DNA of 64,000 nucleotides, from assembly GCA_049512935.1 (NCBI GenBank), contig JBEKWR010000003.1:64001-128000 (forward strand). The letters are read 5' to 3'. Position numbers and translations under genes: made by a program. The notes beneath the pieces were generated by a model. It was given only the letters and a program-made list of their open reading frames with translations, was not told where the DNA came from and did no database searches. Position 1 is the stretch's first letter; each line of letters starts with the position of its first letter. Shown piece after piece: positions 31,611-59,940 of the stretch. This stretch comes from Candidatus Bathyarchaeia archaeon. GTDB lineage: Archaea > Thermoproteota > Bathyarchaeia > Bathyarchaeales > Bathycorpusculaceae.

Positions 31611-32033
31611 GTGATGCTAATGTGCATCTCAGAAAGCGTTGAAGAATACTTAGAGACCCTCTGGAAGTCAGAGGAACACGGCGAAAAACTTGCGCACCTA
31701 ACCTGGATAGCAGATCATTTGGGAATAGCCGCGCCGAGCGCTCTGGAAATGCTGAAAAAGCTGGAAAAAGAAGGGCTCGTAGTTTACAAGGTACGGCAAG
31801 GTATTGAACTTACCGACAATGGAAGAGCAATAGCCAGAAGGATCGTTCGGGCTCACAGATTAACTGAGGTGCTGATGAAGGAAACGCTGAAAACCGACAT
31901 TCGTGAGGAAACGGTCTGCGGAATGGAGCACCACATGGACGAAGAATTCATGGATGCCCTGTGCACACTGCTGAAGCATCCGACAAAATGTCCGCATGGA
32001 CGACCCATCCCAAAAGGAAAATGTTGCCCATAA
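31611..32033 (+). CDS. mntR: DtxR/MntR family metal-dependent regulator
   Basis: EEYLE, HRL.E, CGMEH, CPHGRPIP. Confidence 0.9.
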   Translation: MMLMCISESVEEYLETLWKSEEHGEKLAHLTWIADHLGIAAPSALEMLKKLEKEGLVVYKVRQGIELTDNGRAIARRIVRAHRLTEVLMKETLKTDIREETVCGMEHHMDEEFMDALCTLLKHPTKCPHGRPIPKGKCCP

Positions 32034-40680: not shown

Positions 40681-40682
40681 CT

Positions 40683-42599
40683 TTAAAGCGCCTCCGGGAT
40701 TCCCCTGATTTTTGAATAATTAAACACGGGTCCATCCTTGCAAACATAGACTTGGTTGATCTGGCAGTGACCACATCTTCCAACTCCACACTTCATTCTT
40801 CTCTCCAAAGACATGATTATGTGATCGTCGGGAACGTTTCGTTTTTTTAAGTCAGCAATGACGAACTTGTACATGATTGGTGGACCGCAAATTACAGCGT
40901 ACGTTTTTTCGGGATCAAACTTTATTTGAGGAATAAGCGTTGTTATCACACCTATATTTGCCGACCAAGTTTCGGTTTCAGGGCAACTGTCGACTGTAGG
41001 CTTGAATTCTACGTCGTCTCTCTCGGCTAGTGCAAGAAGTTCATCAGCAAAAAGCAGATCCTTTGGCTCCTTACAGCCATAAAGCAAAATTACCTGGCCA
41101 TAGTCTTTTCGGTTATCAAGAACGTAATTGAATAATGACCGCAGCGGTGCAAGTCCCAGGCCGCCTGCCACAAAAAGCAGGTCTTTGCCTTTCAAGAATT
41201 CTGCATCAAATCCGTTTCCAAACGGTCCTCTTATTCCCACTTTGTCTCCGGCGTTAAGCGTGTGCAACTTCGTTGTTACGTTGCCTAGTTTACGAACGCA
41301 TATTTCAAACGTTTCTTTCTTTGTTGGCGGCGACGAAATGGAAATTGGCGCTTCGCCTATTCCAAAAACCGAAACTTCAACGAATTGTCCTGGTTTGTGA
41401 CCCAGAACCGAGCCATCGTCCAATTTGATTTCAAACAACGTTTCATTAGCCGTCATAGGCTGTTTCCTTACGATTGTTGCAAGCATAGGAACAAAGTCTA
41501 TGTTGCCTTCAGTTTGAATTTTAACTTCAGGCGTTGATACAGCAGTCACTTGCACGCCACTGTTCTGGTTTTCATGGTACATGTCATTGAAAAGATTGAC
41601 TGGGTTGGCAATGTTAGGAAGACAGTTCGAGGAGCACCGCCCGCAACCTACACACGAAACGAATCCGAATCGATCAAACAGATACTTGCCTTTCTTAAAG
41701 TATCTATGTCTATATCTGGTCGGTCTTGTTGGGCGGAAATTTTCACCTGAACTGATTTTCGCAAAATCTTCGATTAAGCATCCATCCCAAGTTCTCACTC
41801 GTTCGCCCTGTTCAAGGGACAAGTCAGGATTATCTTTAATATCAAAGCAGTAGCATGTGGGGCAAACAAGGACGCAGGAGCCGCAAGCTAAACATTTCTC
41901 AGAATGTTTCTCCCAGAAAGAACTGTCTCCGTAAAATTTACTCAGCATTTCAGGAATTAATTCTGGTGGAAGATCCAGCTTTTGTTGTGTCATCGCCATT
42001 ATTTCCCGCTTTTTCTGGCCGACCAGCTGGGTGTCTCTTGCAAGCGCATTATCAACGTTTTTTGCATACTTATCCAGGAGTGCCTCGCCTTTTTCCGAAC
42101 CAATACTGATGGCATACCTGTTTCCAAGATCCGTGAGCATAAGGTCATAGCCATACTCTACTGTGGCGCTGCCCATGTAATCTGCAAAGCACCATTTTGA
42201 CATTTTCACAATATTAACGCCGATAATTATCGATGCTTCCCGTTTTTCAAAATAGTACGGGTCTGATTTTGTTTCGCTAAAGACTTCATCCATGTGAAGA
42301 AGGGCTACTATATCATATGGGTGAACGCCGACTAGCACCATGGGCTTGATTTCAGATGGGCTTTTAGCAGAAAAACTCTTTCCCACATTATAAGTCACTA
42401 AAGTTTCTCTTTGGGGAAAGAAATACTTCTTAGGCGGAAGAAGAGTAACGTCATAATCCATTCGCAGTTCACTGGCAGACTCTAAAGGCCCGAAAGCGAA
42501 TTTATTGCCTTTCGCTTTGACACCTATAACGTTCAAAGATTCATCTTTTATCATGGAGTTGACAAAAAGAGCAAAGTTTTCTTTTGATATTATACGCAT
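40683..42599 (-). CDS. fused sulfhydrogenase beta (4Fe-4S) and gamma (FAD/NADP) subunits
   Basis: CLACGSC..VCPTCYC and CVGCGRC...C, then PGQF, GEAPISI, GPFG, GGLG, CGPP, CGVGRCGHC in one ORF. Confidence 0.9.
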   Translation of the reverse strand: MRIISKENFALFVNSMIKDESLNVIGVKAKGNKFAFGPLESASELRMDYDVTLLPPKKYFFPQRETLVTYNVGKSFSAKSPSEIKPMVLVGVHPYDIVALLHMDEVFSETKSDPYYFEKREASIIIGVNIVKMSKWCFADYMGSATVEYGYDLMLTDLGNRYAISIGSEKGEALLDKYAKNVDNALARDTQLVGQKKREIMAMTQQKLDLPPELIPEMLSKFYGDSSFWEKHSEKCLACGSCVLVCPTCYCFDIKDNPDLSLEQGERVRTWDGCLIEDFAKISSGENFRPTRPTRYRHRYFKKGKYLFDRFGFVSCVGCGRCSSNCLPNIANPVNLFNDMYHENQNSGVQVTAVSTPEVKIQTEGNIDFVPMLATIVRKQPMTANETLFEIKLDDGSVLGHKPGQFVEVSVFGIGEAPISISSPPTKKETFEICVRKLGNVTTKLHTLNAGDKVGIRGPFGNGFDAEFLKGKDLLFVAGGLGLAPLRSLFNYVLDNRKDYGQVILLYGCKEPKDLLFADELLALAERDDVEFKPTVDSCPETETWSANIGVITTLIPQIKFDPEKTYAVICGPPIMYKFVIADLKKRNVPDDHIIMSLERRMKCGVGRCGHCQINQVYVCKDGPVFNYSKIRGIPEAL

Positions 42600-42872
42600 T
42601 TCATCGCTTCCAGATTGCTGAGAATAAGCAATTTTTTTTTGTAATAGTACATGAAAAGGTAAAGATGCACATATAATTCTTTTCCTAAAAAAGGACTATC
42701 TACCGAAAAACGTGTTTGAGCAGTCCAAAACCAAACGAATTATTTACGGTCAAGATCAAGTTTTGTGGCTAATTGCCTTAGAAACATCGTCTATCTGCCC
42801 TTTAGACTTTTATACTAGGATTTCTGTAGTGGTGCGGTGTGGTTCCATTGAATTTAAAGGAGGATCAAACCA

Positions 42873-43361
42873 TTGTCTGAAATGGACCAGAGACGTTCAA
42901 CGTTGGAAAAAGTTTTGAAAGAACACAATTACCAAGAAAGCGCTCTTTTAGAAATACTGCATCGCGCCCAAGAAATTTACGGCTATTTAGATAAGGATTT
43001 GCTTATGGACATTTCTGGGTCGCTTAACATTCCGCCGAGCCATGTTTACGGCGTAGCAACTTTCTACAGCTTCTTCAAATTTAAACAGCCCGGGCAACAC
43101 ATCGTCACTGGTTGCTTAGGAACCGCTTGCTACGTGAAAGAAGTTGAACAGATTTTTGAGGCTGTTGAAAAAGAATTTAACGTCAAACGCGGCGGAGAAA
43201 CTTCAGATGGAAAGCTTTCCCTTCTTGTCACGCGGTGCATCGGCGCGTGCGCTATGGCACCGAACGTCGTGATTGATGATGACGTGGTGGGTAGAGCCAC
43301 AAAAGAAATAGTTATTGCAAGAATAAAGGCTGTTCTTGGAGGGATTAAACCTGAAAGTTGA
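42873..43361 (+). CDS. hoxE: Hox diaphorase 2Fe-2S subunit
   Basis: GVATFY, CLGTAC, CIGAC. Confidence 0.88.
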   Translation: MSEMDQRRSTLEKVLKEHNYQESALLEILHRAQEIYGYLDKDLLMDISGSLNIPPSHVYGVATFYSFFKFKQPGQHIVTGCLGTACYVKEVEQIFEAVEKEFNVKRGGETSDGKLSLLVTRCIGACAMAPNVVIDDDVVGRATKEIVIARIKAVLGGIKPES

Positions 43362-44997
43362 TGATATTCAAAAAATAGCTGAGCATGAAATTGATTTTCA
43401 AAGGGCATACAAGTACCGGATTAATGTTTGCTGCTCAAGCGGATGCGTTCCTTTCGGAGCGCTCAAAGTCCTGAAAGCTTTCGAAGATGCGGTTAAGGAG
43501 TTAGGCGTGGACAAGGAATGCAAAGTTGCACGCACAGGCTGCATCGGCACATGCTCTGTCGGTCCCGCAGTTTTGATTGAGCCCGGTGACTACCTTTACC
43601 AGAGCGTTACCCCTGAAGCTGTGAGGGAGATTGTCCGTGACCACATAGTTCTCGATTTACCAGTAAAAGAAATGCTTTACAAGAATGAGGCGTACTTCAA
43701 AAAGCAGCATCGGCTTGTTTTAAGGAACGCTGGAAAAATTGACCCCCTGAGAATTCAAGATTACATTTCTGCAGGCGGCTACTCCGCAATTGCTAAGTGC
43801 TTAACATCCATGACTCCGCAAGCCGTAATCGCTGAGGTGGTGGCTAGCGGTCTTCGAGGCAGAGGCGGCGCAGGCTTCCCAACAGGGCAAAAATGGACTT
43901 TAGTATCAAGGGCGCAGAACACTCCCAAGTACATAGTTGCCAACCTCGACGAAGGAGACCCAGGCGTATTCGCAAACCGAACCTTGGCAGAAGCTGACCC
44001 GCACGCCATCATCGAAGGCATGCTTATTGCCGCATTCGCGATCGGCGCGGAAAAAGGCTACATTTACATTAGGTCCGAGTACCCGTTAGCCATCCAAACC
44101 TTGGTGAAGGCTATCGCTCAGGCAAAGGCAATGTCACTTCTCGGCGACAACATCTTAGAAACCAACTTTAAATTCGACCTTGAACTCCGATTTGGCGCAG
44201 GCGCGTTTGTCGCAGGAGAAGAAACAGCAATTCTCGCCTCAGTGGAGGGACAAAGAGCTATGCCTCGTCCGCGTCCACCGTACCCGGCGAACTCTGGTTT
44301 ATGGAAGAAACCCACGCTTATCCAGAACGTTGAAACATTCGCAAACATACCTCAAATCATACAAAACGGGGGCGCATGGTTCGCGAAAACAGGCACTCCG
44401 AAATGCGCGGGAACCAAATGCTTCTCGCTTACGGGTAAAGTTAACAATCCAGGCTTAATTGAAGTGCCGATGGGAATCACGCTGAGAGAAGTCGTGTTCG
44501 AAATCGGCGGCGGCGTGGCTGAAGGAAGGAAATTCAAGGCTGTCCTAGTGGGCGGACCCTCAGGCGGCTGCCTACCTGACACGTTGCTGGACCTCCCAAT
44601 TGACTATGAGTCACTGACGAAGGCTGGAGCAATCATGGGCTCAGGCGGCATCGTAGTGCTTGACGACGAATCATGCATGGTTGACACGGCTAGGTTCTTC
44701 ACTGACTTCTGCGTTGAAGAATCATGCGGCAAATGCACGCCCTGCCGAGCTGGCTTAGCCCGAGTCAAAGAAATATATGACCAAATTTCAACGGGCAACG
44801 GCAAAATGGACGACATCGCCACTCTGGAGAAGGCAGGGGTCTACATTCGAGATGCGAGCCTTTGCGGTCTGGGGCAAACAGCGCCTAACCCGGTTCTGAC
44901 TACGCTTCGGTACTTCAAAGATGAGTACGTTAAACACATCGTTGAAAAGAAATGTGAAGCAGGTAAATGCTTCAAGAAGCATGGGGAGGAGGAATAA
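43351..44997 (+). CDS. hoxF: Hox diaphorase FMN/NAD subunit
   Basis: GRGGAGF, DEGDPG, GEET, ESCGKCTPC, CGLG; N-terminal 2Fe-2S domain; probable CTG start after GGAGGG. Confidence 0.9.
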   Translation: MKVDDIQKIAEHEIDFQRAYKYRINVCCSSGCVPFGALKVLKAFEDAVKELGVDKECKVARTGCIGTCSVGPAVLIEPGDYLYQSVTPEAVREIVRDHIVLDLPVKEMLYKNEAYFKKQHRLVLRNAGKIDPLRIQDYISAGGYSAIAKCLTSMTPQAVIAEVVASGLRGRGGAGFPTGQKWTLVSRAQNTPKYIVANLDEGDPGVFANRTLAEADPHAIIEGMLIAAFAIGAEKGYIYIRSEYPLAIQTLVKAIAQAKAMSLLGDNILETNFKFDLELRFGAGAFVAGEETAILASVEGQRAMPRPRPPYPANSGLWKKPTLIQNVETFANIPQIIQNGGAWFAKTGTPKCAGTKCFSLTGKVNNPGLIEVPMGITLREVVFEIGGGVAEGRKFKAVLVGGPSGGCLPDTLLDLPIDYESLTKAGAIMGSGGIVVLDDESCMVDTARFFTDFCVEESCGKCTPCRAGLARVKEIYDQISTGNGKMDDIATLEKAGVYIRDASLCGLGQTAPNPVLTTLRYFKDEYVKHIVEKKCEAGKCFKKHGEEE

Positions 44998-44999
44998 AC

Positions 45000-45710
45000 G
45001 TGAGCGCACCCAACACTTTGAAACTTAAGATTGACGGTGTCGAAGTTTCAGTTCCTGAAGGCACCACTATCCTGGAAGCGGCTAAATCCAATGGCATCAT
45101 AATTCCAACGTTATGCTCGCTTGAAGGTTTAATCCCTTACGGCGGCTGCCGACTATGCCTCGTTGAAATCAGCGGCTCACCAAAGCTTTTCCCTGCGTGC
45201 ACCACGCCCGTTGGACCTAACATGGAAATCACAACCAAGTCGGAGAGGCTTAAAGATTGCCGCAAGATGGCTGTTCAACTGCTGATGTCCGAGCGGGTTC
45301 ACATATGCTCGGTCTGTGTTGCTAACGATCACTGCGAACTGCAAGCCATGGCTAAGGAGCTTGGAGTTGACCATGTGATGTTTGAGAGGAACTGGACTCG
45401 TGACCCCGTCGATTCCACTCATGACTTCTTGGTCATTGATAGGAACAGGTGCATTCTATGTACCCGTTGCATTCGTGTCTGCGACCAGATTGAAGGCGTC
45501 CACACGCTTGACCTTAAGCTGCGGGGGAAGGACACTGAGGTAATTATGGATCTTGATGAGCACTGGGCGAATTCTTGCTCATGCACATCCTGCCGCAAAT
45601 GCGCGAAGGTCTGCCCTGTGGGAGCCATATACATCGAGGGAGAACCCATTGACCATACTAAGCGTAAAGATATCGCCGAGTTCATCTTGGCGAGGAGGCA
45701 ACGCAAATGA
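45000..45710 (+). CDS. hoxU: Hox diaphorase Fe-S subunit
   Basis: PTLC, CRLC, H.C..C, CILCTRC...C, CTSCRKC...CP. Confidence 0.9.
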   Translation: MSAPNTLKLKIDGVEVSVPEGTTILEAAKSNGIIIPTLCSLEGLIPYGGCRLCLVEISGSPKLFPACTTPVGPNMEITTKSERLKDCRKMAVQLLMSERVHICSVCVANDHCELQAMAKELGVDHVMFERNWTRDPVDSTHDFLVIDRNRCILCTRCIRVCDQIEGVHTLDLKLRGKDTEVIMDLDEHWANSCSCTSCRKCAKVCPVGAIYIEGEPIDHTKRKDIAEFILARRQRK

Positions 45711-46249
45711 CCGCGAACGCGAAGGTTAGAGTCGCCACGGTTTGGCTTAGCGGCTGCGCAGGCTGTCACATGTCGTTCCTAGATCAAGACGAGCGGCTTG
45801 TGGATCTAGCTCAGAAAATCCAGCTGGTTTACAGCCCCATCGCCGATGTGAAGGAGTTTCCAGAAAACGTTGATGTCACGCTCATCGAAGGCGCGATTGC
45901 GAACGAAGAGCAGCTTCACATGCTTCAGAAGGTGAGAGCCCGAACCAAAGTCTTGATATCGCTCGGCGACTGCGCGGTGACGGGAAACGTGGCTGCACTG
46001 AGAAACTCGTGGCGCCACAGCGATCGAGCCGTGCTGGAGCGGGCGTACAAGCAGAAGTCTGATTTGAACGCTGCGATCCCAACTGATGTGCCGAAGCTTC
46101 TGATTAAGGCTCGTCCACTGCATGAAGCCGTCAAAGTTGACTTCTACATACCGGGATGCCCGCCGCACGCGGACCTGATCAACTACGTGATAACCGAATT
46201 GCTGGCAGGTAAGACGCCAAGAATGGAGGGTAAAACAAAATATGGTTAA
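45707..46249 (+). CDS. hoxY: group 3d hydrogenase small subunit
   Basis: GCAGCHMS, GDCA, PGCPP; 180 aa single-cluster type. Confidence 0.9.
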   Translation: MTANAKVRVATVWLSGCAGCHMSFLDQDERLVDLAQKIQLVYSPIADVKEFPENVDVTLIEGAIANEEQLHMLQKVRARTKVLISLGDCAVTGNVAALRNSWRHSDRAVLERAYKQKSDLNAAIPTDVPKLLIKARPLHEAVKVDFYIPGCPPHADLINYVITELLAGKTPRMEGKTKYG

Positions 46250-47687
46250 AGAAGAAAAAGACAGCAAGCAAATCGTAATCAGCCCCATCACCAGAATAGA
46301 GGGGCACGCTCAAGTATCCATCTGCCTAAACAACGATGATTCCGTCAAAGAAGCAAGGTTCCAGGTTGTTGACTTCAGAGGCTTCGAAAAATTCACTGAA
46401 GGGCGACCTTTCTACGAGATGCCCAGCATAACGTCCCGAGCCTGCGGAATCTGCCCAGTGAGCCACCTGCTTGCTTCTGCCAAAGCTTGCGACGCCATCG
46501 TCGGAGTTAGCCCGCCACCCGCCGCCATAAAACTGCGCCGCTTAATGCACATGGGACAGATGATTCAGTCGCACGCATTGAACTTCTATTATCTCTCTGC
46601 GCCTGACCTGATGCTTGGCTTCGACTCTGACCCAGCGGCAAGAAACGTTTTCGGGCTTATAGAGAAGGATCCGAAGCTGGCGTTGCAGGGTGTTAAGCTT
46701 CGAAAGTTCGGTCAAGAAATAATCGAGAAGATCGCTGGCAAGCGGGTACATTCAAGCGAGTGGATTCTTCCAGGCGGAGCCAAATGGCCTCTGAGCAGGG
46801 AAAAAGCGGATTATTTGAAGTGTAATTTGCCTGAGGCGCTTGACGGTGCGGAAAAGACGCTTGCACTCTACAAGGAGTGGCTGAAGAACTTTGATGAGGA
46901 AGTGGAGAACTTCGGGAATTTCCCAAGCTACTACATGGGTCTGGTAACTCCGACGGGTGGGCTTGAACACTACGACGGCACGTTGACCATTATGGACAAG
47001 GACGGCAAAGTCGTTGCGCAGTGCGTTGACCCGACAACTTACAGCGACTTCATAGGTGAAGCTGTTGAACCCTACTCGTTCATGAAGTTCCCGTACTTCA
47101 AAGCGGTCGGGTACCCAGACGGTTTCTATCGTGTCGGACCCTTAGCGCGAATGAACGTTGCGTCACACTGCGGCACGCCTCTTGCAGACTTGGAGCTTAA
47201 GGAGTTCAAGAAGTTGGGCAGGAACGGCGTTGTCCAAAGCACCTTCCATTACCACTACGCGCGGCTGATTGAGTTGCTGTTCTGCGTTGAAAAGGCGAAG
47301 GAGCTGCTGGAAGACCCAGAGATTCTCTCCGAGCACGTTACGTCGAAGGCTTTGGTGAACCATTACGAGGGCGTCGGCGTGGCTGAGGCGCCAAGAGGCA
47401 CCCTTATTCATCATTACAAGGTCGACAAGGAAGGCATGATAACTTGGAACAACATGATCATCGCGACGGAGCACAACAACATCGCCTACAACAGGGCGGT
47501 AACTCAGGTTGCAAAGAAGTACGTGAAGGCGAAGACGCTTGAGGAAGGCATGCTTAACCGCGTTGAAGCCGTAATCCGCGCTTTCGACCCGTGCCTGAGC
47601 TGCGCGACCCACGCGGTCGGTCAGATGCCGCTGGACATAAAACTGTTCGACGCCGACGGCAAGCTGGTTGACCGCAAGGTCAGGTAA
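46242..47687 (+). CDS. hoxH: group 3d hydrogenase large subunit
   Basis: [29 protein letters not shown] plus C-terminal extension. Confidence 0.92.
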
Positions 47688-50993: not shown

Positions 50994-52289
50994 TTACGAC
51001 GTTTCTTGACGCAGTGTTTCTCTACGGCTCTGTGTCACAGCAATGGCAATAGAAAGCACAGCGAGGAACGGGGGCAGGATTACTAGCACTGGAAACTCTG
51101 GAACAAGAGTTGAAGTTGCCTGATTTGTCTCATTCGTTGTGGCGTACATTAAGACGGCGGTGTAGCGTGCGCCCGAGGCTGTGCGGTAGCTGATGTGTGG
51201 GTTGCCGCTGGCGTCTAATGCTAGCCAGCAGGGTCCATTGGCTGAAGTGTTTGAGCTTATGGTTTGAATGTTCCACGCGCTGCCTGAATAGGAGGCATAC
51301 ATGGGAACTCCGTCTGAATTGATGTAGCAGAAGTGGGGGTTACCATGCGAGTCTAAAACCAACTGGCCGACTGGATTGTCATCTCCTAAGCTGACCTTTG
51401 AAGCCACGGTCTGCGAAATCCAAACAGTACCGTTGAAACTGGCATAAAGTATTGTGCTAAGAGTGGTTGAGTTTTGGTAAGGCTGCGTGTAAATGAAGTG
51501 CGGATAGCCCTTAGAATCGACAACCACGTTTCCGAGATTAGCTGATGAGGGAGGCAACGGAATAGTTTGGGTATTCCAACTTGAGTTTTGGTATTTTGCA
51601 AGCTTGATAGCGCTGGAATTGGACGTTAAGCTATACATTATGTACGGCGTATTGTTTGAGCCCAACGCGAAAGAAAACGTTGAAAAACTGTCGTTCATGT
51701 TACTGTATATGGTTTGGGTAGTCCAGCTTGTCCCTGTCCAGCTTGCATAATCCAACGCGCTGCCTAACCAAGTTACACCATATTGCAATTCAACGCCAGT
51801 AGTGTAAGCGATGTGTGGATTGCCAGATGAATCCAATGCGAGCGCTGCAGAACCTGCGTAAGATATGCCCGTGTTTTGGATGTCCCAGCCATTTCCGTTC
51901 CAACTAGCAATCTTTAAAGGGTCAATTGGAGCCCCAAGAGGGCTTGTATTATACAATATATGTGGGTAACCGTTTGCATCGAAAACAAGACTGAAAACAA
52001 CGAAAACATAACCCGAGCCATCAACAGTTTGGTTGATCCAACCTGAACCGTTACTGCTTGTGTAAATCAAAGAATTTGTGCCAGAGGGAAAATCCATGTA
52101 GGCTATGTGGGTGACATTGTTTGAATCTACTGCAATGGGGCAACCGCCGCCAGCCCACGCATCTTCATCCAAAGTTTGAACGTTCCAAGCCTGTTCAGAC
52201 TTGGCTGAAACCGCCGATGGCAAAACGGCTAACGAAATCAGGAACGAGGCGATAAGAATTGAAGCGTAAGTTTTGCTTCTGTTGCTCAT
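50994..52289 (-). CDS. secreted beta-propeller surface protein with PEF-CTERM-like anchor
   Basis: Signal peptide; repeats LALDSSGNPHI.Y...YASW.G.SW; VPEFP-TM-RR tail. Confidence 0.85.
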   Translation of the reverse strand: MSNRSKTYASILIASFLISLAVLPSAVSAKSEQAWNVQTLDEDAWAGGGCPIAVDSNNVTHIAYMDFPSGTNSLIYTSSNGSGWINQTVDGSGYVFVVFSLVFDANGYPHILYNTSPLGAPIDPLKIASWNGNGWDIQNTGISYAGSAALALDSSGNPHIAYTTGVELQYGVTWLGSALDYASWTGTSWTTQTIYSNMNDSFSTFSFALGSNNTPYIMYSLTSNSSAIKLAKYQNSSWNTQTIPLPPSSANLGNVVVDSKGYPHFIYTQPYQNSTTLSTILYASFNGTVWISQTVASKVSLGDDNPVGQLVLDSHGNPHFCYINSDGVPMYASYSGSAWNIQTISSNTSANGPCWLALDASGNPHISYRTASGARYTAVLMYATTNETNQATSTLVPEFPVLVILPPFLAVLSIAIAVTQSRRETLRQETS

Positions 52290-52313
52290 GGCTTCTATTA
52301 GAAAGGTCTGTTG

Positions 52314-52368
52314 TTAAAAGGTTATTCGTTAAGGGTTCTTGACTGGTTTTAGTCAAGTTTTTTTGACT
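52314..52368 (-). promoter_or_regulatory. 55-bp conserved upstream cassette, copy A
   Basis: TTAAAAGGTTATTCGTTAAGGGTTC-TTGACT-N6-AGTCAA-N6-TTGACT. Confidence 0.85.
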
Positions 52369-52394
52369 TAACTCAAAGTCGCTCTACGAGAAAT

Positions 52395-53390
52395 TTACGT
52401 TCGGGTGCTTCTTTGCCGCATCATTGCAATGACTCCAGCCAACGCGCCGATAACAAATGCCATTATAGCGATGACGGCAATCACGGCGACGAGCCATCCT
52501 TGAACGTCGAGTCCGCTGCCCTTGGGTTGGGTGAGCGCTTGCGGCGCATTGGCTGTTGTTGTTGGAGTTGCGGTTGGGTTCTGTGTGGGGGTGGCTGTTG
52601 TGGTTTCGTTTTCGGGTGTGACTTGTGTTACTTGGCAGTTCGAGCAGTTGGTGTCGTTGTATGCTGGGGTCATCGTGATTTGCCAAGGGCAGCTTGTGCA
52701 GGAACTATCTGAGGAGAAGGCATCCGTGGGCAGTATAATGCTGACTTTCTGTGTTGCGCCATCTGCGGTTTGCTCGTGGAAGCTGAGCAGGATCGGGTAG
52801 GGCGGGTAATCCTCGTTGACCATAAGGAAGTACTGGCTGGGGTAGGGTGAACCCGAGTTCGGCGGCGGATCTTGGACGATGCCGTAGTGAATTGTGCAGT
52901 TGGGCAGTTGATACGTGAAGGTCCCGATGAAGTACGAGGCGACTTGGGGAGACGCGGTCGGACTGGGCGCCGGGGTGGAAGAGGGGAATCCGCCGTTTAG
53001 CCAGTGCATCGTGATCTGCGTGGGGAAGCCGGTGCATCCTATCGAGGTGGAGAATCCGTCGGTCGGCAAAGTCATGGTCATGTTCTGCACTGCGCCTGAT
53101 CTGTCTGCTTCGAGGAAACAGATCTGGATCGGCTGGGGCGGGTAGTCTTCGTAAACCACGATGTTGTAGGCGTATGGGTTAATGGCGTCGGCGTCGGGCG
53201 GAGGCATCTGTATAATCGTATAGTTTAACGCGTAGCCAGGCAGCGTGTAGGTGTAGACTGGGCCGACTTGGTTTGGCTCTATCGGAGGTGAATACGCCGA
53301 GGCAAAACTTGTCGCGAGAAGTGCGGTGGCAAAGAGCAGAAGGGCTGTGGCGGTTGCGGTTTTGATGTTTTTAGTCATGGCTACCAACAA
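52395..53390 (-). CDS. secreted surface protein with two tandem copies of an unrecognised domain
   Basis: Signal peptide, duplicated EDYPP...LPTD.FS....C...P.QITM domain, P/T linker, TM and basic tail. Confidence 0.82.
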   Translation of the reverse strand: MLVAMTKNIKTATATALLLFATALLATSFASAYSPPIEPNQVGPVYTYTLPGYALNYTIIQMPPPDADAINPYAYNIVVYEDYPPQPIQICFLEADRSGAVQNMTMTLPTDGFSTSIGCTGFPTQITMHWLNGGFPSSTPAPSPTASPQVASYFIGTFTYQLPNCTIHYGIVQDPPPNSGSPYPSQYFLMVNEDYPPYPILLSFHEQTADGATQKVSIILPTDAFSSDSSCTSCPWQITMTPAYNDTNCSNCQVTQVTPENETTTATPTQNPTATPTTTANAPQALTQPKGSGLDVQGWLVAVIAVIAIMAFVIGALAGVIAMMRQRSTRT

Positions 53391-53412
53391 TGCTGCATGG
53401 CGCTGGAACGCT

Positions 53413-53467
53413 ATAAAAACGTGTTCGTTAAGGTTTCTTGACCACTGTTAGTCAACATTTCTTGACT
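53413..53467 (-). promoter_or_regulatory. 55-bp conserved upstream cassette, copy B
   Basis: ATAAAAACGTGTTCGTTAAGGTTTC-TTGACC-N6-AGTCAA-N6-TTGACT. Confidence 0.85.
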
Positions 53468-53619
53468 GACTCTTTGAATGCAAAGAGTGGCATACACTTG
53501 CTAAGGAAAAGGACTGTTGCCTTCCATTGACTTAACTTATCGGTTTTTCGATGCCTAAGTATCGCGGCAGCAGAGATTACGCGCTAGCTGAGCTCCCAAG
53601 GGCGTCCAAGCTAATCACT

Positions 53620-55308
53620 CTACAACTCGGGGAGGCGGCTCTTTGCTCTTGTCGTCTTTGTTATTAATTTAAGCACAACTAAAAGTGTTGCCGCGGTGGC
53701 TACGCCACCAGCTACTCCATAGATTACTTCCAAAAGTGAACTTGACTGCGCAGATGTTCGGCTAGGTGAAATTGTTGGATTTGGCGATGAAGAGGTTTTA
53801 GTGAAGACAATGTCTATTTGATGCGTGCTGAAATGCGTTGAAAACCACACGTAGTAGTTGTCGCCATCTTGTGTGTACCCTTGGATTGAGGCTGGCTGAC
53901 CATCGATGTAGACTATTGGTGTGGTTCCGTTGAGAACTGCACTTATTGGGATAGTTATGTTACCGAAACCCATGGTCCCGCTTTCCCCAGTTACAGTAAA
54001 AGACACAGTTGTTGAGTTGTTAGGTTGGTTTGTTGTGATTGTTACATTGGATATTTGGGCGCTTGTTATGTTTCCGCTGATTGCAAGGTCGATTGTTGAG
54101 CCATTGTCTGTTGTGGCGGGCAAAGTTGTTGATGATATTGGCGGTGTTGATGAGGGTGTAGGTGAAGAAGCAGCCGCGCCCAGAGCATAAATGTTGTCAG
54201 AATCAGACCCTAAGTAAACTACCCCGTCAACAACAGCAGGAGACGAAATAACACCAAAATAAGTGGCATTCCAGAGTTGGTCACCGTTAGAGGCATCCAA
54301 AGCGTAAATTGAACCGCATTGACCGCCAACGTAGACTGCTCCGCCGGCGATAACAGGAGAAGCAGAAATATTGGCGGCAACAGTGCAATTCCAGATTTGC
54401 GAACCGCTGGAAGCATCCAAGGCATAAACGTGTCCTGACATTGACGCGATGTAAGCTATGCCGTTAAAAACAGCAGGAGAACCCTCAACGTCAGTGCCAA
54501 AAGAGTAACTCCAGATTTCAGCGCCGCTAGCAGCGTTCAAAGCATAAGCTATGCCTTGCTCAACTGAGCCTCCGTACACTCCGTAGACTACGCCGTTAAC
54601 CACAATAGGAGACGACCAAACATAGGCGCCGCCAGTAGAATAACTCCAAAGTTTTGCGCCATCGGCAGCATTCAAAGCATAAATGGCGCCGTCATCAAAT
54701 GAGCCTATATAGACAACATTAGCGACAACGGCAGGCGACGAAACAACGCCGCTGAGGGGGTAGCTCCAGAGCCTTGCACCGTTATTAGCATTCAAAGCAT
54801 AAAGGTTGCCGTCCTCGGAGCCCACGTAGACTACACCGTTAACAACAGCAGGAGACGAATAAACGGAGGCGCCGGTGGAGTAATTCCAAAGTTTAGCACC
54901 GTTAGCCGCATTTAAAGCATAAACGTTGTCATCAAATGAGCCAATGTAAACTACGCCATCAACAACAGCGGGCGATGACCGCACCACGCCGCCAGTGGTA
55001 TAGCTCCAAAGCACCACGCCGTTGGTCGCGTTTAAAGCGTAGACGTTGCCGTCATCCGCGCCTGTGTAAACCACGCCATTAACAACTGCAGGAGACGAAT
55101 CAAACTGATCGCTCTGATGGATGTCATTTTCACCGCCGTTGTAATCCCAAAGTATAGCGGGAGAAAGCGGCGGATTCCCTGTTCCAACGTTGCTGTGAGA
55201 AGGACCCGCGCCGTACATTGCCCAGTCTGCCTTTGCAAACGGGATCAAAATCAAGCTGAAAAGAAAAATAAAGCAGACAATTCCTGTCAAAACGCTTAAC
55301 CTGTTCAT
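53620..55308 (-). CDS. secreted PQQ-like beta-propeller repeat protein
   Basis: Signal peptide, about 8 SSPAVVNGVVY.GS.D.N.YALNA..G..LW repeats, THFSTH domain, C-terminal TM. Confidence 0.92.
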   Translation of the reverse strand: MNRLSVLTGIVCFIFLFSLILIPFAKADWAMYGAGPSHSNVGTGNPPLSPAILWDYNGGENDIHQSDQFDSSPAVVNGVVYTGADDGNVYALNATNGVVLWSYTTGGVVRSSPAVVDGVVYIGSFDDNVYALNAANGAKLWNYSTGASVYSSPAVVNGVVYVGSEDGNLYALNANNGARLWSYPLSGVVSSPAVVANVVYIGSFDDGAIYALNAADGAKLWSYSTGGAYVWSSPIVVNGVVYGVYGGSVEQGIAYALNAASGAEIWSYSFGTDVEGSPAVFNGIAYIASMSGHVYALDASSGSQIWNCTVAANISASPVIAGGAVYVGGQCGSIYALDASNGDQLWNATYFGVISSPAVVDGVVYLGSDSDNIYALGAAASSPTPSSTPPISSTTLPATTDNGSTIDLAISGNITSAQISNVTITTNQPNNSTTVSFTVTGESGTMGFGNITIPISAVLNGTTPIVYIDGQPASIQGYTQDGDNYYVWFSTHFSTHQIDIVFTKTSSSPNPTISPSRTSAQSSSLLEVIYGVAGGVATAATLLVVLKLITKTTRAKSRLPEL

Positions 55309-55375
55309 TTTAAATCCCTTCTTGCCTTCTTTTGCTCCGCTCTGAATCGCATGTATGCTGTTAAGATTGGTTTGG

Positions 55376-55430
55376 TTAAAAGGCTATCCGTAAAGGTTTC
55401 TTGACTGATTTTAGTCAACATTTCTTGACT
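55376..55430 (-). promoter_or_regulatory. 55-bp conserved upstream cassette, copy C
   Basis: TTAAAAGGCTATCCGTAAAGGTTTC-TTGACT-N6-AGTCAA-N6-TTGACT. Confidence 0.85.
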
Positions 55431-56059
55431 GAGCCGCATCAAACAGGTTTATGGATGCACTTCAGAAAAATATCGATAATTTTTTTTCGTGTTAAGGCTC
55501 GCTATGGGCAATCGTTTTGGCGCTATATTGTTTCTGATATAGCAGTGCATGTGAACTAAACTTATAAGCAAAAAAGGAGCGTTAAGATAACTTGCCGTTC
55601 GAAATGTCCGAACGTGAGAGAGGGGGAGCGTCACGAACCAAGGCGATGATGGTAGGGAAGAAAGAAAGTACCGAATCGATATCGGAGCTTTTGGAAGCAT
55701 CAGCGTTGAAGCGCCCACTAAAAAGGAGTGTTTGGAGCTTTTCAAGGAAGTTACGCGGACAAGGCGTGATTCAAGGATAGAAGAAGCGATAAGATAACCG
55801 GTTTTACCAGTGCACGAGCAAAGCATTGTGTCGACAACCCATTTTTGTACGGTTTCTACGGTGAAAACCCGAGAATTCTAATCAGCTAAGCATCCAGCTG
55901 GCGAAAAAACGGCAGTTAACGTGCCAGAACCCTTTAAAATAACAAGACTTGAAATATGGGCGAATATCCTTTGGGTTTACTTAACCTTTAAATGGTTGAC
56001 TTGGACATTTTGGGTAAATAAGCACGTATGGTGCTTCCTACCAGTCAGGTGGATTATGC

Positions 56060-56620
56060 ATGACTGAGACAGCTGTGGTAAGTCCTTCAGGCAAAGAACC
56101 GATCAAAGCGTCTGAGCTAGACCCCAAGTTCAAGTACGAACTGCTCAAGATGCATGGAAGCGAAAAAATCCTCAAATGCTTCCAGTGTGGAACATGCACC
56201 TCTGACTGTCCCGTAGCAAGGTACAGCGACAGTTACCGCCCGAGAACCCTCATCCACATGGCTCAACTCGGCTTGAAAGACCGAGTGCTTAAAAGCGACA
56301 CTTTATGGCTTTGTGCGGCGTGCTTCACCTGCACTGACCGTTGCCCCCAAGATGTCGAAGTGGCAAGCGTAATTCGCGTTTTCAGAAACTTAGCCGTCGA
56401 AAACGGCTGCATACCCCAAGTCTTCAAAGATCAAACCGCAAGCCTGCTTGAATCAGGCTACGCCTACAAGATTCCCGATTTAAGAATAAAAAAACGCGAA
56501 TCCCAAGGGCTTCCGCCCCTGCCGAAAGGCAACTGCGAAAACGTCAAGAAGGCGCTTAAAGGCGTGAAATTTATAGAATCCGTCCAGAAACCCGCAGGAG
56601 GACAGCCCAATGGGCAATAA
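56060..56620 (+). CDS. hdrC: heterodisulfide reductase subunit C
   Basis: CFQCGTC...CP and WLCAACFTC..RCP. Confidence 0.92.
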   Translation: MTETAVVSPSGKEPIKASELDPKFKYELLKMHGSEKILKCFQCGTCTSDCPVARYSDSYRPRTLIHMAQLGLKDRVLKSDTLWLCAACFTCTDRCPQDVEVASVIRVFRNLAVENGCIPQVFKDQTASLLESGYAYKIPDLRIKKRESQGLPPLPKGNCENVKKALKGVKFIESVQKPAGGQPNGQ

Positions 56621-57503
56621 GTTCCTGCTTTTCCTCGGCTGCGCCATCCCTTACCGCGTTTCAGCCTACGAGATTTCCGCTCGGAAAGTTCTGGCTAAGC
56701 TCGGCGTTGAGCTGGTTGAGATGCCTGAGTTCAACTGCTGCGGTTTACCTTTCGACCCAGTCAGTCATGAAACCATGCTTGTTTTGGCGGCGAAAAACTT
56801 GGCGCTGGCGGAACGGGAAGGACTCAACATTCTCACGCTTTGCCCAGGCTGCGCTGGCTCACTCAAGAAAACTAACAAGATCCTCAAAGAAGACAAAGCT
56901 CTGAAAGAGGAAATTAACAGTCACCTGAGAGAGGTCGGGTTGGAGTTCAAAGGAACCGTTGAGGCAAAGCATCTTTTGCAGTTTCTGAAGGAAGATGTCG
57001 GCGTGGAAAAAATCAAGGCGTCCGTCACCAGACCGCTCAGCATGCTTAAGGTTGCTGAACACAACGGCTGCCACATTCTGAGGCCTAAAGAGTACATCGG
57101 CTTTGACGACCCAGAGGACCCGCAGACACTAAAAATGCTTATCGAAGCAACTGGAGCAACCTGCCTCGACTACATCGACGAAACCGAATGCTGCGGAGCC
57201 CCAAGCGTAGGAGTCAGCGACAAAATCGCCCTGCAGCTCGCAAGAGACAAGCTTAACCACGTTAAAATGGTTGAAGCGCAAGCGCTAATCACAATCTGCC
57301 CATTCTGCCACATAATGTACGACACAAACGAGCTAAGAATAGAGAAAACGTTTAATGAAACCTATGGCATTCCCATACTCCACTACCCACAATTACTCGG
57401 CTTAGCAATGGGGTTAACCCCTGAAGAGTTAGCCTTCGGCGAACTCCGAGTAAACGCATCAAAAATAATAAAGCAAGTAACCGAGTGTGTGAACAAACCA
57501 TGA
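56610..57503 (+). CDS. hdrB: heterodisulfide reductase subunit B
   Basis: Two CCG domains (GC..NCCG..CPGC; HNGCH..ECCG..CPFC). Confidence 0.93.
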   Translation: MGNKFLLFLGCAIPYRVSAYEISARKVLAKLGVELVEMPEFNCCGLPFDPVSHETMLVLAAKNLALAEREGLNILTLCPGCAGSLKKTNKILKEDKALKEEINSHLREVGLEFKGTVEAKHLLQFLKEDVGVEKIKASVTRPLSMLKVAEHNGCHILRPKEYIGFDDPEDPQTLKMLIEATGATCLDYIDETECCGAPSVGVSDKIALQLARDKLNHVKMVEAQALITICPFCHIMYDTNELRIEKTFNETYGIPILHYPQLLGLAMGLTPEELAFGELRVNASKIIKQVTECVNKP

Positions 57504-58489
57504 GCAAAAGCAAGTTAAAAATAGCCTTTTACTGGGCTGCAAGCTGCGGCGGCTGCGAGATAGCCGTCTTAGACATAAACGAGAAAATCCTTGACGTAGT
57601 GCAAATAGCCGACGTGGTTTTCTGGCCAGTAGCCTTAGACATCAAGTACAAAGATGTTGAGGAGATGGCTGACAAGTACATTGACATAACATTCTTTAAC
57701 GGTTCAATACGCAACAGCGAACAGGAACATATGGCTAAGCTGCTGAGGCAAAAATCCAAAACCTTGGTCGCCTTCGGCTCATGCGCCCACCAAGGAAGCG
57801 TACCTGGACTGGCAAACCTCAACGACAAACAAGAGATCTTCGACCAAGTCTACATAAAAGATTTGTCAAACGTGAACCCGCAGGCGGTTGAGCCTCAGAC
57901 TGTAACCCACGTTAAAGAAGGCACACTTAAAATCCCAGAGTTCTACGACACAGTAAAAACTTTGGCGCAGACAGTCGACGTAGACTATTACCTGCCAGGC
58001 TGCCCACCGCCGGTTAAACTGATCGCGGGCGCAATAGACGCCATAGCAAGCGGCACACTGCCGCCCAAAGGCTCAGTGCTCGCGCCCCTCAAAGCCGTGT
58101 GTGACGAGTGCCCAAGAAAACGAGAAAACAAGAAAATCGGCAAAATCTACCGCGTCTACGAGAAAACCCCAGAGCCAGAAAAGTGCCTGCTTGAACAAGG
58201 CATCCTCTGCATGGGACTTGCAACCAGAAGCGGCTGCGGCGCCCAATGCTTAAACGTTGACATGCCCTGCACAGGCTGCGGCGGACCAGCCCCGAACGTG
58301 CCCGACCAGGGAGCGGCGATGATTTCCGCTTTGGCTTCGATTCTCGGTTACGACGGTGAACCGGGCAAAACCACGTACACCGAAAAAGAGGTTGAGGAAC
58401 TGCTGAGCCAGGTGAAGGACACTGTTGGCACCTTCTACATGTACAGTTTACCAGCATCTATCCTGAAACGAAAGGTGATTAAAAAATGA
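57500..58489 (+). CDS. mvhG: group 3c hydrogenase small subunit
   Basis: SCGGC, FGSCA, PGCPP, CDEC, CLL.QG..CMG..T..GC, CTGC. Confidence 0.9.
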   Translation: MSKSKLKIAFYWAASCGGCEIAVLDINEKILDVVQIADVVFWPVALDIKYKDVEEMADKYIDITFFNGSIRNSEQEHMAKLLRQKSKTLVAFGSCAHQGSVPGLANLNDKQEIFDQVYIKDLSNVNPQAVEPQTVTHVKEGTLKIPEFYDTVKTLAQTVDVDYYLPGCPPPVKLIAGAIDAIASGTLPPKGSVLAPLKAVCDECPRKRENKKIGKIYRVYEKTPEPEKCLLEQGILCMGLATRSGCGAQCLNVDMPCTGCGGPAPNVPDQGAAMISALASILGYDGEPGKTTYTEKEVEELLSQVKDTVGTFYMYSLPASILKRKVIKK

Positions 58490-59940
58490 AAGAAATAGTA
58501 ATAGACCCGATCACGCGTCTTGAAGGACACGGAAACGTATCCATATTCCTAAACGACCAGGGCGAAGTAGAAAACGCCTACCTCAAAGTTCCTGAGCTGC
58601 GAGGATTCGAGAAGTTCTGCATCGGCAGAAAAGCCGAGCTTATGCCGCAGTTAACCACGAGAATCTGCGGTGTCTGCCCAGTGGCGCACCACTTCGCGGC
58701 AACAAAAGCCTTAGACGCGGCATTCAACGTTGAACCGCCCTCAGCTGCAAAGAAGCTTCGGGAGCTAATGTACAGCGCCTACTACATCTACGACCACACA
58801 CTGCACTTCTACTACCTCGGCGGACCAGACTTCATAGTTGGACCAGACGCGCCGCCGGAAAAACGCAACATCCTAGGCGTCATCGAAAAAGTCGGGATGC
58901 CAGTTGCGAAAGAAGTCATAAAGCATCGGGCTTACGGGCAAAAAATGACCGAAATCATCGGCGGAAAAGCAACCCACCCCGTCTGCGGATTGCCAGGCGG
59001 AATCAGCAAGCCTCTTAGTGAAGAGAACAGGCAAGAAATTGAGAAAATGGCGACCTCATGCGTTAGCTTCGCCCAGTTTACCCTTGATATTTTCCACAAA
59101 ATCGTTTTAGGCAACACCAAGTACGTTGACCTGATCTTGAGCCAAGCCTACACCATGCCAACCTACTACATGGGCACAGTTGACGAGAACAACAAGGTCA
59201 ACTTCTACGACGGCAAAATCCGCGTGGTCGACCCATCAGGCAAAGAATTCGTCAAGTTCGAAGCAAAAGACTACCTAAACCACATCGGCGAACACGTCGA
59301 GGAATGGACGTACAGCAAGTTCCCGTACCTCAAAGCCGTCGGCTGGAAAGGACAAGTTCCAGGCAAAGACAGCGGCATCTACCGTGTCGGTCCACTGGCG
59401 CGACTGAACGCTTCAGACGGAATGGCAACACCGTTGGCGCAGGCAGAATACGAGGTCATGTACAAGACACTTGGCGGCAAACCGGTCCACAGCACCTTGG
59501 CTTTCCATTGGGCACGCTTAATCGAGCTGCTCTACGCTACGGAAAGAACGATGGAGCTTGTTAAGGACCCAGAAATCACCAGCACAAACGTCCGCAACAA
59601 GCCAGGAGAACCAGGCGAAGGCGTGGGCATAACCGAGGCGGCACGCGGCACACTCATTCACCACTACGTCCTCGACAAGGACGCTCTCGTCAAAGACGTA
59701 AACCTCATCGTCGCCACAACCAACAACTACCCAGCAATCTGCATGAGCATACGCGACGCAGCTAAAGGCTTAATCCACGGCGGCAAAGTCGACCAAGGCA
59801 TACTTAACATGGTTGAGATGGCTTTCAGAGCCTACGACCCGTGCTTCGGATGCGCAACACACAACGCAATCGGGCAAATGCCACTGACCGTTGAAGTCTA
59901 CAACGCCGACAAAAAGCTAATCAGCTCAGTAAGCCGATAA
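58486..59940 (+). CDS. mvhA: group 3c hydrogenase large subunit
   Basis: TRLEGHG, ELRGFEKF, RICGVC, DPCFGCATH. Confidence 0.92.
   Translation: MKEIVIDPITRLEGHGNVSIFLNDQGEVENAYLKVPELRGFEKFCIGRKAELMPQLTTRICGVCPVAHHFAATKALDAAFNVEPPSAAKKLRELMYSAYYIYDHTLHFYYLGGPDFIVGPDAPPEKRNILGVIEKVGMPVAKEVIKHRAYGQKMTEIIGGKATHPVCGLPGGISKPLSEENRQEIEKMATSCVSFAQFTLDIFHKIVLGNTKYVDLILSQAYTMPTYYMGTVDENNKVNFYDGKIRVVDPSGKEFVKFEAKDYLNHIGEHVEEWTYSKFPYLKAVGWKGQVPGKDSGIYRVGPLARLNASDGMATPLAQAEYEVMYKTLGGKPVHSTLAFHWARLIELLYATERTMELVKDPEITSTNVRNKPGEPGEGVGITEAARGTLIHHYVLDKDALVKDVNLIVATTNNYPAICMSIRDAAKGLIHGGKVDQGILNMVEMAFRAYDPCFGCATHNAIGQMPLTVEVYNADKKLISSVSR

Follow-up and report, generated by a model that had tools for sequence, protein, structure and literature searches.

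A putative regulator-binding array in composite promoters of cell-surface protein genes of Bathyarchaeia

The archaeal activators Ptr2, LysM and Ss-LrpB each bind a dimer site a few base pairs upstream of the transcription factor B recognition element (BRE), at a highly constrained position, and are assisted by auxiliary sites further upstream; activation proceeds via contact with the TATA-binding protein (TBP), whereas the characterised repressor example LrpA sits on the downstream side of the TATA box (PMC2995911, in the sections that treat these factors). Here we describe an element of about 58 bp with a comparable layout, which occurs three times in a 64,000-nucleotide stretch of the genome of Candidatus Bathyarchaeia archaeon (assembly GCA_049512935.1, contig JBEKWR010000003.1, positions 64,001 to 128,000; this whole stretch is called the window, and positions are counted from its first letter). 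Each copy stands in front of a gene for a protein that looks secreted and membrane-anchored. A second system of interest is the euryarchaeal archaellum (fla) promoter, which EarA controls through short repeated boxes upstream of the BRE. A third is the family of integron attC/attI sites and tyrosine-recombinase cores, the class of sites to which an earlier note on this DNA had compared the element.

The element is like the sites of Ptr2, LysM and Ss-LrpB in having a palindromic, dimer-type site a few base pairs upstream of the BRE at a tightly constrained position, in having a second site further upstream, and in that the regulator gene, here a candidate one, can itself be a target (PMC2995911, same sections). 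It differs from them in its TTGACT half-site, its four hexamers with a 12-bp period and its directional 24-bp unit, in having the secreted and surface proteome rather than metabolism as its targets, and in being known from sequence alone. Like the EarA-controlled promoter, it has a 6-bp box repeated several times directly ahead of the BRE and TATA box, and a connection to genes for cell-surface structures; fla, however, is one operon, whereas the present element appears to serve dozens of promoters per genome (at most 11 loci per assembly among the matches listed) and many protein families, and both the box sequence and the candidate regulator family differ. With integron sites and tyrosine-recombinase cores it has in common short inverted arms, a 6-bp spacer and recurrence between stacked, unrelated, co-oriented genes. 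Integron sites, in contrast, end promoterless cassettes at their 3' side, whereas this element lies 5' of each gene and carries a BRE and TATA box at fixed spacing; its arms are just 6-8 bp long, and no recombinase gene was found nearby (63 open reading frames [ORFs] of the window scanned). A literature search by title and abstract returned nothing on this motif or on promoter elements of Bathyarchaeia. Members of this class are abundant in soils, peat and sediments, and to our knowledge little is known about their gene regulation. We propose that the element is a new example of a promoter-proximal regulator array with its own regulon, characterised by an apparently class-wide distribution, a directional geometry of four half-sites, secreted or surface targets, and an uncharacterised triple winged-helix protein as the candidate factor.

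A repeat family search of the window recovered three gapless 56-nt copies, at 52313-52368, 53412-53467 (75%) and 55375-55430 (86%), so that the three gapless copies reported in the earlier note are real and its coordinates match within 1 nt. The window matches the pattern AGTCAA-N6-TTGACT-N6-RGTCAA exactly at three places, all on the minus strand, and 100 dinucleotide-preserving shuffles contain no match; each of the two 18-bp inverted pairs that it contains occurs three times, against 0.26 and 0.24 expected. Exact pattern search also bore out the previous count of eight exact hexamers among nine, the deviant one being GGTCAA at 53443-53438. A profile hidden Markov model of 108 sites from other genomes (nhmmer) found exactly these three sites, with the next-best match in the 64 kb at E 0.76. 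Because an Rfam scan of the whole window matched one tRNA only, the element corresponds to no known RNA family. The parts of the three copies are as follows.

52313..52370, minus strand: putative composite promoter of gene 1 (exact pattern and repeat search; nhmmer E 2.3e-12)
52368-52363, 52356-52351 and 52344-52339, minus strand: hexamers AGTCAA, TTGACT and AGTCAA of the gene 1 promoter
52332-52327, minus strand: degenerate fourth half-site TTAACG of the gene 1 promoter
52326-52321, minus strand: A-rich, BRE-like stretch of the gene 1 promoter
52320-52313, minus strand: TATA box CTTTTAAC of the gene 1 promoter
53411..53469, minus strand: putative composite promoter of gene 2 (exact pattern and repeat search; nhmmer E 3e-14)
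53467-53462, 53455-53450 and 53443-53438, minus strand: hexamers AGTCAA, TTGACT and GGTCAA of the gene 2 promoter
53431-53426, minus strand: fourth half-site TTAACG of the gene 2 promoter
53419-53412, minus strand: TATA box TTTTTATA of the gene 2 promoter
55374..55432, minus strand: putative composite promoter of gene 3 (exact pattern and repeat search; nhmmer E 2e-16)
55430-55425, 55418-55413 and 55406-55401, minus strand: hexamers AGTCAA, TTGACT and AGTCAA of the gene 3 promoter
55394-55389, minus strand: fourth half-site TTTACG of the gene 3 promoter
55381-55374, minus strand: TATA box TTTTAACC of the gene 3 promoter

An exact-pattern scan of 185,579 species-representative genomes (596 Gb) yielded at least 123 loci, compared with a chance expectation of about 35 matches over all 596 Gb. 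Bathyarchaeota or Bathyarchaeia titles account for 104 of the 123 loci listed, spread over 45 assemblies, the richest of which contributes 11; 2-kb flanks are present for 80 of the 123. Three perfect hexamers were required, and these counts are lower bounds, on a biased sample, among the matches listed. The sites in the Bathyarchaeia-titled loci listed comprise 108 unique sequences, hereafter the listed sites (individual loci carry L numbers), and their consensus is TT-AGTCAA-GAAAct-TTGACT-aAnnTt-AGTCAA-GAAAnc-TTtACg-AaaAnc-CTTTTAt. The scan pattern fixed the three hexamers only and left the other consensus positions free, and for this reason the rest of the consensus counts as independent evidence of constraint. 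The two T's ahead of the first hexamer are kept in 80 and 84 of the 108 sites, the G, A, A and A directly after it in 98, 101, 101 and 98, the TT.AC of the fourth half-site in 102, 100, 105 and 97, and the CTTTTA positions in 84-100.

The element can be described as two tandem 24-bp units (AGTCAA-GAAAnn-TTGACT) that directly abut the BRE and TATA box. In each unit, two TTGACT-type hexamers in inverted orientation flank a 6-bp spacer, and because the GAAA with which this spacer mostly starts is conserved, the unit is directional and not truly palindromic. The fourth hexamer, next to the promoter, is degenerate in a systematic way (TTtACg), and a few base pairs separate its end from the BRE. This half-site had previously been read as part of a separate box, GAA(A/C)CCTT(A/T)ACG(A/G)A. 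The letters of that box are present, but they make up a spacer plus the degenerate fourth half-site TT(A/T)ACG: the box (GAAMCCTTWACGRA) matches the element's own sequence 24 nt upstream and is thus in register with the internal 24-bp period, a result obtained in the window and independent of the genome scan. Every listed match has its distal inverted pair 24 bp ahead of the proximal one, partly as a consequence of how the search was constructed, and longer arrays occur at L001, L004, L005 and L057. Upstream of the first hexamer, the 108 listed sites show no terminal repeats and no flank conservation except the TT.

Spacing towards the gene is equally regular. In 89 of the 108 listed sites, the third hexamer is followed at a distance of 18-20 nt by the start of a TTTWW run (+19 in 69, +18 in 11, +20 in 9), compared with 5 of 22 sites with other titles, and an ATG falls at +48..+51 in 56 of the 108 versus none of the 22. 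An ATG at this place lies about 30 nt beyond the start of the TATA box, which fits a leaderless mRNA. The fourth half-site, at +6..+11 after the third hexamer, comes to lie a few base pairs upstream of the BRE, and its distance from the promoter hardly varies. Each cassette is probably a complete composite archaeal promoter, in which a putative regulator-binding array stands at a fixed distance from the BRE and TATA box and, in typical members of the family, from a leaderless start codon as well.

The window by itself might suggest a simpler origin. Its three copies, 75-86% identical, are confined to 3.1 kb, which could be explained by a recent local duplication event or by a small mobile element that carries an outward promoter, in which case the repeat would carry no regulatory meaning. 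Similarity ends at the element edges, however, and is lowest in the spacer positions; at least 45 assemblies retain the element, its spacers and flanks being variable, and terminal repeats are absent from the listed sites. We rejected this origin, to which we give almost no credence, on the grounds that conservation is confined to the hexamers, the GAAA and the BRE and TATA box while spacers vary and flanks are unrelated.

Conservation of the hexamers alongside variable spacers argues strongly that the array is a protein-binding site. We propose that a sequence-specific factor would bind the proximal site, contact TBP or transcription factor B (TFB) and activate transcription, as archaeal activators do from sites just upstream of the BRE, and it is this analogy that inclines us towards activation. 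It is also conceivable that the array is read by a lineage-specific TFB or TBP paralogue or by a chromatin protein, and that it acts as an extended core promoter for constitutive high expression. The rigid distance to the TATA box and the co-conservation of BRE and TATA would suit such a role, as would the fact that surface proteins are often among the most expressed proteins of a cell. Four discrete hexamers of alternating orientation and 12-bp period are, on the other hand, typical of sites for helix-turn-helix factors, and the module also precedes a winged helix-turn-helix (wHTH) regulator gene with a long 5' leader, not just genes for abundant structural proteins; we consider reading by a basal or chromatin factor very unlikely.

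The same element and regulon could also be governed by a repressor, with a multimer on the four half-sites that would occlude or distort the TFB/TBP site and hold the surface-protein genes off until released by a signal. About 7 bp separate the end of the fourth half-site from the TATA run, so that a protein bound there could collide with TFB on the BRE; the core TATA and BRE are well conserved, as for a promoter that fires unaided; and negative autoregulation would equally explain a module upstream of the wHTH gene. The whole array nevertheless lies upstream of the BRE, where the activators bind, whereas the LrpA repressor example lies downstream of the TATA box (PMC2995911, same sections), and an operator for a repressor strikes us as unlikely.

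The bias towards secreted genes that had been predicted for a genome scan was found. A downstream ORF is callable at 99 of the 108 listed sites, and 82 of these 99 ORFs have a signal-peptide-like N-terminus, in contrast to 8 of 55 other window ORFs (Fisher p 5e-17; among the gene-like window ORFs the figure is 11 of 58 with the three targets and 8 of 55 without them). Among full-length downstream ORFs (n=64), 53 are signal-peptide-like, 39 have a C-terminal transmembrane (TM) segment and 38 have both. The 99 proteins fall into 34 BLASTP clusters, 27 of them singletons. The largest cluster (31 members) has no Pfam family, often ends in VPEF or VPEL, a TM segment and RHRK, and carries a PSVPEFT-type motif just beyond the predicted signal-peptide cleavage site; the second and third comprise 17 NosD/beta-helix proteins and 10 PQQ propellers. 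Of the 65 full-length ORFs that reach 100 aa, 60 were scanned with Pfam, leaving aside one duplicate entry and four ORFs with bacterial or Micrarchaeota titles; the scan matched PQQ propellers (6), NosD/beta-helix (6), CarboxypepD_reg, BNR_4, NHL and Big, with no Pfam family for 38 of the 60. At L016 and again at L111, a divergent pair of secreted-protein genes shares one array with four perfect hexamers. In several of the cases in which a site has no ORF or a non-secreted one, a truncated copy of the main secreted family follows the site. Because the same module stands before many non-homologous genes for secreted or anchored proteins across Bathyarchaeia, we regard it as strongly supported that it marks a class-wide cell-surface regulon. 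The first of the two proposals in the earlier note, an activator array defining a surface-protein regulon, is in this respect strongly supported by comparison, except that its activation is inferred from position only.

Several observations weigh against the proposal of an activated surface regulon or limit its reach. Signal peptides and TM segments were called by a crude hydropathy rule and not by a trained predictor. Seventeen of the 99 downstream ORFs are not signal-peptide-like, and 18 of the 108 listed sites have no TTTWW run at the expected place. Some membrane or secreted-looking ORFs of the window are without the element (for example 19937-20587 and 21498-22778), and it therefore does not mark all envelope proteins. 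Since the scan demanded perfect hexamers and the counts come from the matches listed, the size and composition of the regulon are biased samples. Finally, the activating direction is derived from the position of the array alone, and a TATA box as well conserved as this one may need no activator.

In the window, the three promoters precede the following minus-strand reading frames.

50994-52289, minus strand: target gene 1, 431 aa; signal-peptide-like N-terminus, weak BNR_4 match, C-terminus of VPEF, TM segment and basic residues
52395-53378, minus strand: target gene 2, 327 aa from the ATG at 53378; signal-peptide-like N-terminus, Thr/Pro-rich linker, C-terminal TM segment
53620-55308, minus strand: target gene 3, 562 aa; signal-peptide-like N-terminus, PQQ-type beta-propeller, C-terminal TM segment
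55305..55352, minus strand: 15-codon upstream ORF (uORF; MRFRAEQKKARRDLK and stop) in the gene 3 leader

What had been said of these genes at the outset was that they are unrelated, that each product has a signal peptide and a C-terminal TM segment, and that no regulator is adjacent. All of this was confirmed: the proteins are mutually non-homologous (best BLASTP E 0.14), all three score by a Kyte-Doolittle heuristic as having a hydrophobic N-terminal segment and a C-terminal TM segment, and no Pfam transcription factor lies beside the cluster, the nearest one found being a DtxR-type repressor at 31611-32030, which is also the sole Pfam transcription factor among the 63 window ORFs scanned. 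Genes 1-3 have nothing in common except the promoter module. A homologue of gene 1 follows the same element at L032, and homologues of gene 3 do so at L059, L039, L020, L027, L067, L002, L069, L055 and L034. The gene 2 product matched no Pfam or NCBIfam family; by eye it contains two internal repeats of about 85 aa (…Y.LP…I.Q.PPP…EDYPP.PI…LPTD.FS…C…QITM…), followed by the Thr/Pro-rich linker.

The earlier note had seen leaderless spacing in two of these genes. This holds for gene 1, in which 30 nt separate the ATG from the first T of its TATA run (52319 to 52289) and the ATG is 49 nt beyond the third hexamer, but as annotated gene 1 is the only one that is clearly leaderless-compatible. The distance is 41 nt in gene 2 (53419 to 53378), or 29 nt if counted to an in-frame TTG at 53390, and 73 nt in gene 3 (55381 to 55308). 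In gene 3, the ATG of the uORF at 55352 falls 48 nt after the third hexamer, the usual leaderless start position of this element family, and the TGA stop of the uORF overlaps the gene 3 ATG as ATGA. Mini-uORFs of 3-5 codons with the same 4-nt ATGA overlap occur at L039, L085 and L099. This layout may reflect termination-reinitiation coupling on a leaderless transcript.

Archaeosortase substrates of the PEF-CTERM type carry a C-terminal Pro-Glu-Phe motif, a TM helix and a basic cluster. The VPEF or VPEL, TM and basic C-termini of many targets may resemble this sorting signal; by eye, the C-terminus of gene 1 (50994-51120) shows VPEF, a TM segment and SRR. P[ED]F is present in 5 of the 39 target C-termini with a TM segment, and several more have VPEL by eye. 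An NCBIfam scan of the three window proteins at E<=0.01 matched no sorting-signal model of the PEF-CTERM type.

The second proposal of the earlier note was that the element is a portable promoter or recombination site, with arms as in tyrosine-recombinase cores, that lets surface-gene cassettes be stacked or shuffled in the manner of an integron. A site of the integron attC/attI or tyrosine-recombinase core kind would allow such cassettes to be captured, stacked and excised. Its inverted 6-8-bp arms around a 6-bp spacer look the part, and unrelated genes stacked head to tail with a copy each are found not just in the window but at L052/L053, L074, L035, L073, L094/L095, L107/L108 and L112/L113; in one syntenic pair, moreover, homology breaks at the TATA edge. 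The comparative evidence nonetheless runs the other way. No integrase, recombinase or transposase family was matched in the 63 window ORFs (Pfam, 10 of them at E<=0.01 and 53 at E<=1e-5). The element lies 5' of each gene and carries the promoter, with the rigid TATA and ATG distances given above (89 and 56 of the 108 listed sites, at +18..+20 and +48..+51), and a recombination site would need no fixed promoter spacing. Conservation runs asymmetrically into the BRE and TATA box, the spacers are directional, and the arrays at L016 and L111 serve two divergent genes. The site is also kept upstream of orthologues across species. The question of strain synteny was addressed at the species level: 70 long loci contain six syntenic pairs, and four of these are colinear through the element. 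Of the remaining two, L012/L046 has a homologous gene that shows fast divergence only, and in L042/L077 the gene body is non-homologous from the TATA edge onwards. A dedicated recombination site is in our view hardly credible.

The pair L042/L077 does bear on a different possibility, which is compatible with our proposal that the element is first of all a promoter. Secondarily, the ~58-bp module and the coding region of the C-terminal anchor could provide homology arms for ordinary homologous recombination or gene conversion, by which ectodomain-coding bodies in tandem arrays would be swapped, deleted or duplicated. Between L042 and L077 (assemblies CAWGMZ01 and CAVYHL01, Bathyarchaeia) the upstream sequence is 81% identical over ~1.28 kb, the module 84%, the final ~120 nt of the target gene 81% and the gene after it 78%, while the body between is non-homologous; the two target proteins can be aligned over their last 35 residues only (63% identical), and the VPEL-TM-RHRK anchor is conserved. 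L112 (CAWABA01, Bathyarchaeia) matches L042 at 90% over 358 nt, the match stops at the 3' TATA edge, and a different gene with an L077-type N-terminus follows. In addition, 32 site pairs are similar upstream only and 115 downstream only, as for mosaic tandem arrays. Replacement is, however, seen in just one of the six syntenic pairs, diversifying selection with gene gain and loss could yield the same picture with no recombination at the module, and the three window genes share the promoter module alone. We therefore rate a secondary role of this kind as somewhat unlikely. The L042/L077/L112 pattern fits an occasional replacement of ectodomain bodies between promoter and anchor, for which ordinary homologous recombination could suffice, and L042/L077 is a single inter-species case and not evidence for a dedicated system. 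A bolder version, which we think quite improbable, would have Bathyarchaeia display a variable surface proteome of exchangeable ectodomain cassettes between a 5' module and a 3' sorting anchor, with the ~58-bp element being both the control point of one master regulator, a single-chain triple winged-helix factor of a new type that would read the directional array of four half-sites, and a homology arm for ectodomain exchange among loci and lineages.

If the element is a promoter with a regulator-binding array, genes that carry it and are not secreted are of interest as sources of the factor. Two conserved families make up 9 of the 17 non-secreted downstream ORFs. The first is a multi-wHTH protein of ~320 aa, found behind the module in five assemblies (L019, L021, L080, L098 and L106), with Pfam matches to HTH_45, HTH_5, HTH_20, HTH_24, TrmB, HxlR, MarR_2, DUF7347 and HVO_A0261_N. 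This module-bearing gene has a long 5' leader, and in an upstream alignment of the five genes conservation is limited to the array and the BRE and TATA box, which suggests that the wHTH gene is itself controlled by the element. The protein has 1201 homologues at E<=1e-3, mostly ~60% identical and annotated only as wHTH, ArsR or HxlR regulators; 7 of the 8 homologues that are named by organism are from Bathyarchaeia or Bathyarchaeota. Cysteines C28, C31, C39 and C43 are invariant in 30 aligned members. In an AlphaFold2 (AF2) model (predicted local distance difference score, pLDDT, 76; predicted template modelling score, pTM, 0.60), a helical Cys region at the N-terminus is followed by three winged-helix domains and by a long helix at the C-terminus. 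A sequence search of the Protein Data Bank (PDB) with the wHTH alignment gave weak single-domain matches only (Sso10a, HlyU and NolR; E 0.004-0.005), and Foldseek of the AF2 model against the PDB gave none at E<=0.001, with only single-wHTH or incidental matches. With no whole-chain match in the PDB, there is no solved template for how this protein would bind DNA.

We tentatively put forward this conserved protein of ~320 aa, with its four cysteines, three winged-helix domains and C-terminal helix and its so far Bathyarchaeia-only occurrence, as the factor, which would then be autoregulated; we hold this to be possible, at a little less than an even chance. By Pfam, the candidate has no Lrp or RAM domain and is in this respect distinct from the Lrp/feast-famine regulatory protein (FFRP) family, which combines a helix-turn-helix with RAM; the element would accordingly seem to work like an Lrp-type site but outside that system. 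Three points speak against the assignment. The link is circumstantial, with only five wHTH genes listed with the module, all of them picked up because the scan selected perfect sites. The wHTH gene is not in the window: tblastn of the wHTH candidate and of the second protein family against the window gave no match at E<=1e-3, which places the regulator gene, should this genome carry one, elsewhere. And that second family, a Cys-rich protein of 60 aa, is an equally recurrent non-secreted target, found behind the module in four assemblies (L038, L066, L086 and L110). Two of its genes are located as follows.

L038:1765-1944, minus strand: gene for the 60-aa Cys-rich protein, with a CxxC pair and a later HEEC
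L110:65-244, minus strand: gene for the 60-aa Cys-rich protein, with a CxxC pair and a later HEEC

Pfam matches to this small protein are sub-threshold and restricted to zf-RING-like and DUF2175. It could be a cofactor or a second regulator.

The hexamer core of the element also invites comparison with the W-box of plant WRKY factors, TTGAC(C/T), which has the same core. We rejected a kinship as a coincidence of a single hexamer; the candidate factor shows winged-helix Pfam matches only.

The module offers a direct means of listing surface-proteome genes in metagenome-assembled genomes (MAGs), and it supplies a DNA probe and a named candidate protein for a first regulator-operator test in this lineage. 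If it is an activator site, it would extend the rule of a site abutting the BRE to a new type of factor and to a large regulon. It also flags Bathyarchaeia contigs that were mis-binned into bacterial MAGs. The full Bathyarchaeia-type architecture is present in bacterial-titled MAGs of Acidoferrum (L006), Limnocylindrales (L088 and L092) and Chloroflexia (L104). Behind the L088 module stands a member of the main secreted family, and a TrpE labelled Acidoferrum (P0154) is 77% identical to the TrpE of the window. Contamination of these MAGs by Bathyarchaeia contigs, or mislabelling of such contigs, is the probable explanation.

A different repeated palindrome, TTAGTCAA-N6-TTGACTAAATTTAGTCAA..., was noticed in the bacterial matches L028, L045, L082, L109 and L115, with spacers unlike those of the archaeal element. 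Its hosts are MAGs of Paracaedibacteraceae, Binatia, Eisenbacteria and Gammaproteobacteria, and at L028, L082 and L109 it stands upstream of similar-looking ORFs whose N-terminal part carries a DP.L motif. We consider this palindrome a probable bacterial operator unrelated to the archaeal element.

The remainder of the window is ordinary chromosome, with genes for Trp biosynthesis, UvrABC, hydrogenases, Hdr/Mvh-type subunits and glycosyltransferases. Its TrpE is 84-86% identical to proteins named Candidatus Bathyarchaeia archaeon, and 7 of the 10 TrpE matches that are named by organism bear a Bathyarchaeia or Bathyarchaeota name. The ~630 nt (55433-56059) that separate the gene 3 promoter from an hdrC-like gene (56060) contain no Pfam-matching ORF and no Rfam match; a minus-strand ORF of 125 aa in this interval (55449-55826) belongs to no family. 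Three sets of genes for the small and large subunits of NiFe-hydrogenase are located at 38639-40680, 45707-47684 and 57485-59940 (regions 38639-47684 and 56060-59940). One of these sets adjoins hdrC/hdrB-like genes and another NuoE/F/G-like genes, and the repeat search found 47077-47431 to be similar to 59309-59681.

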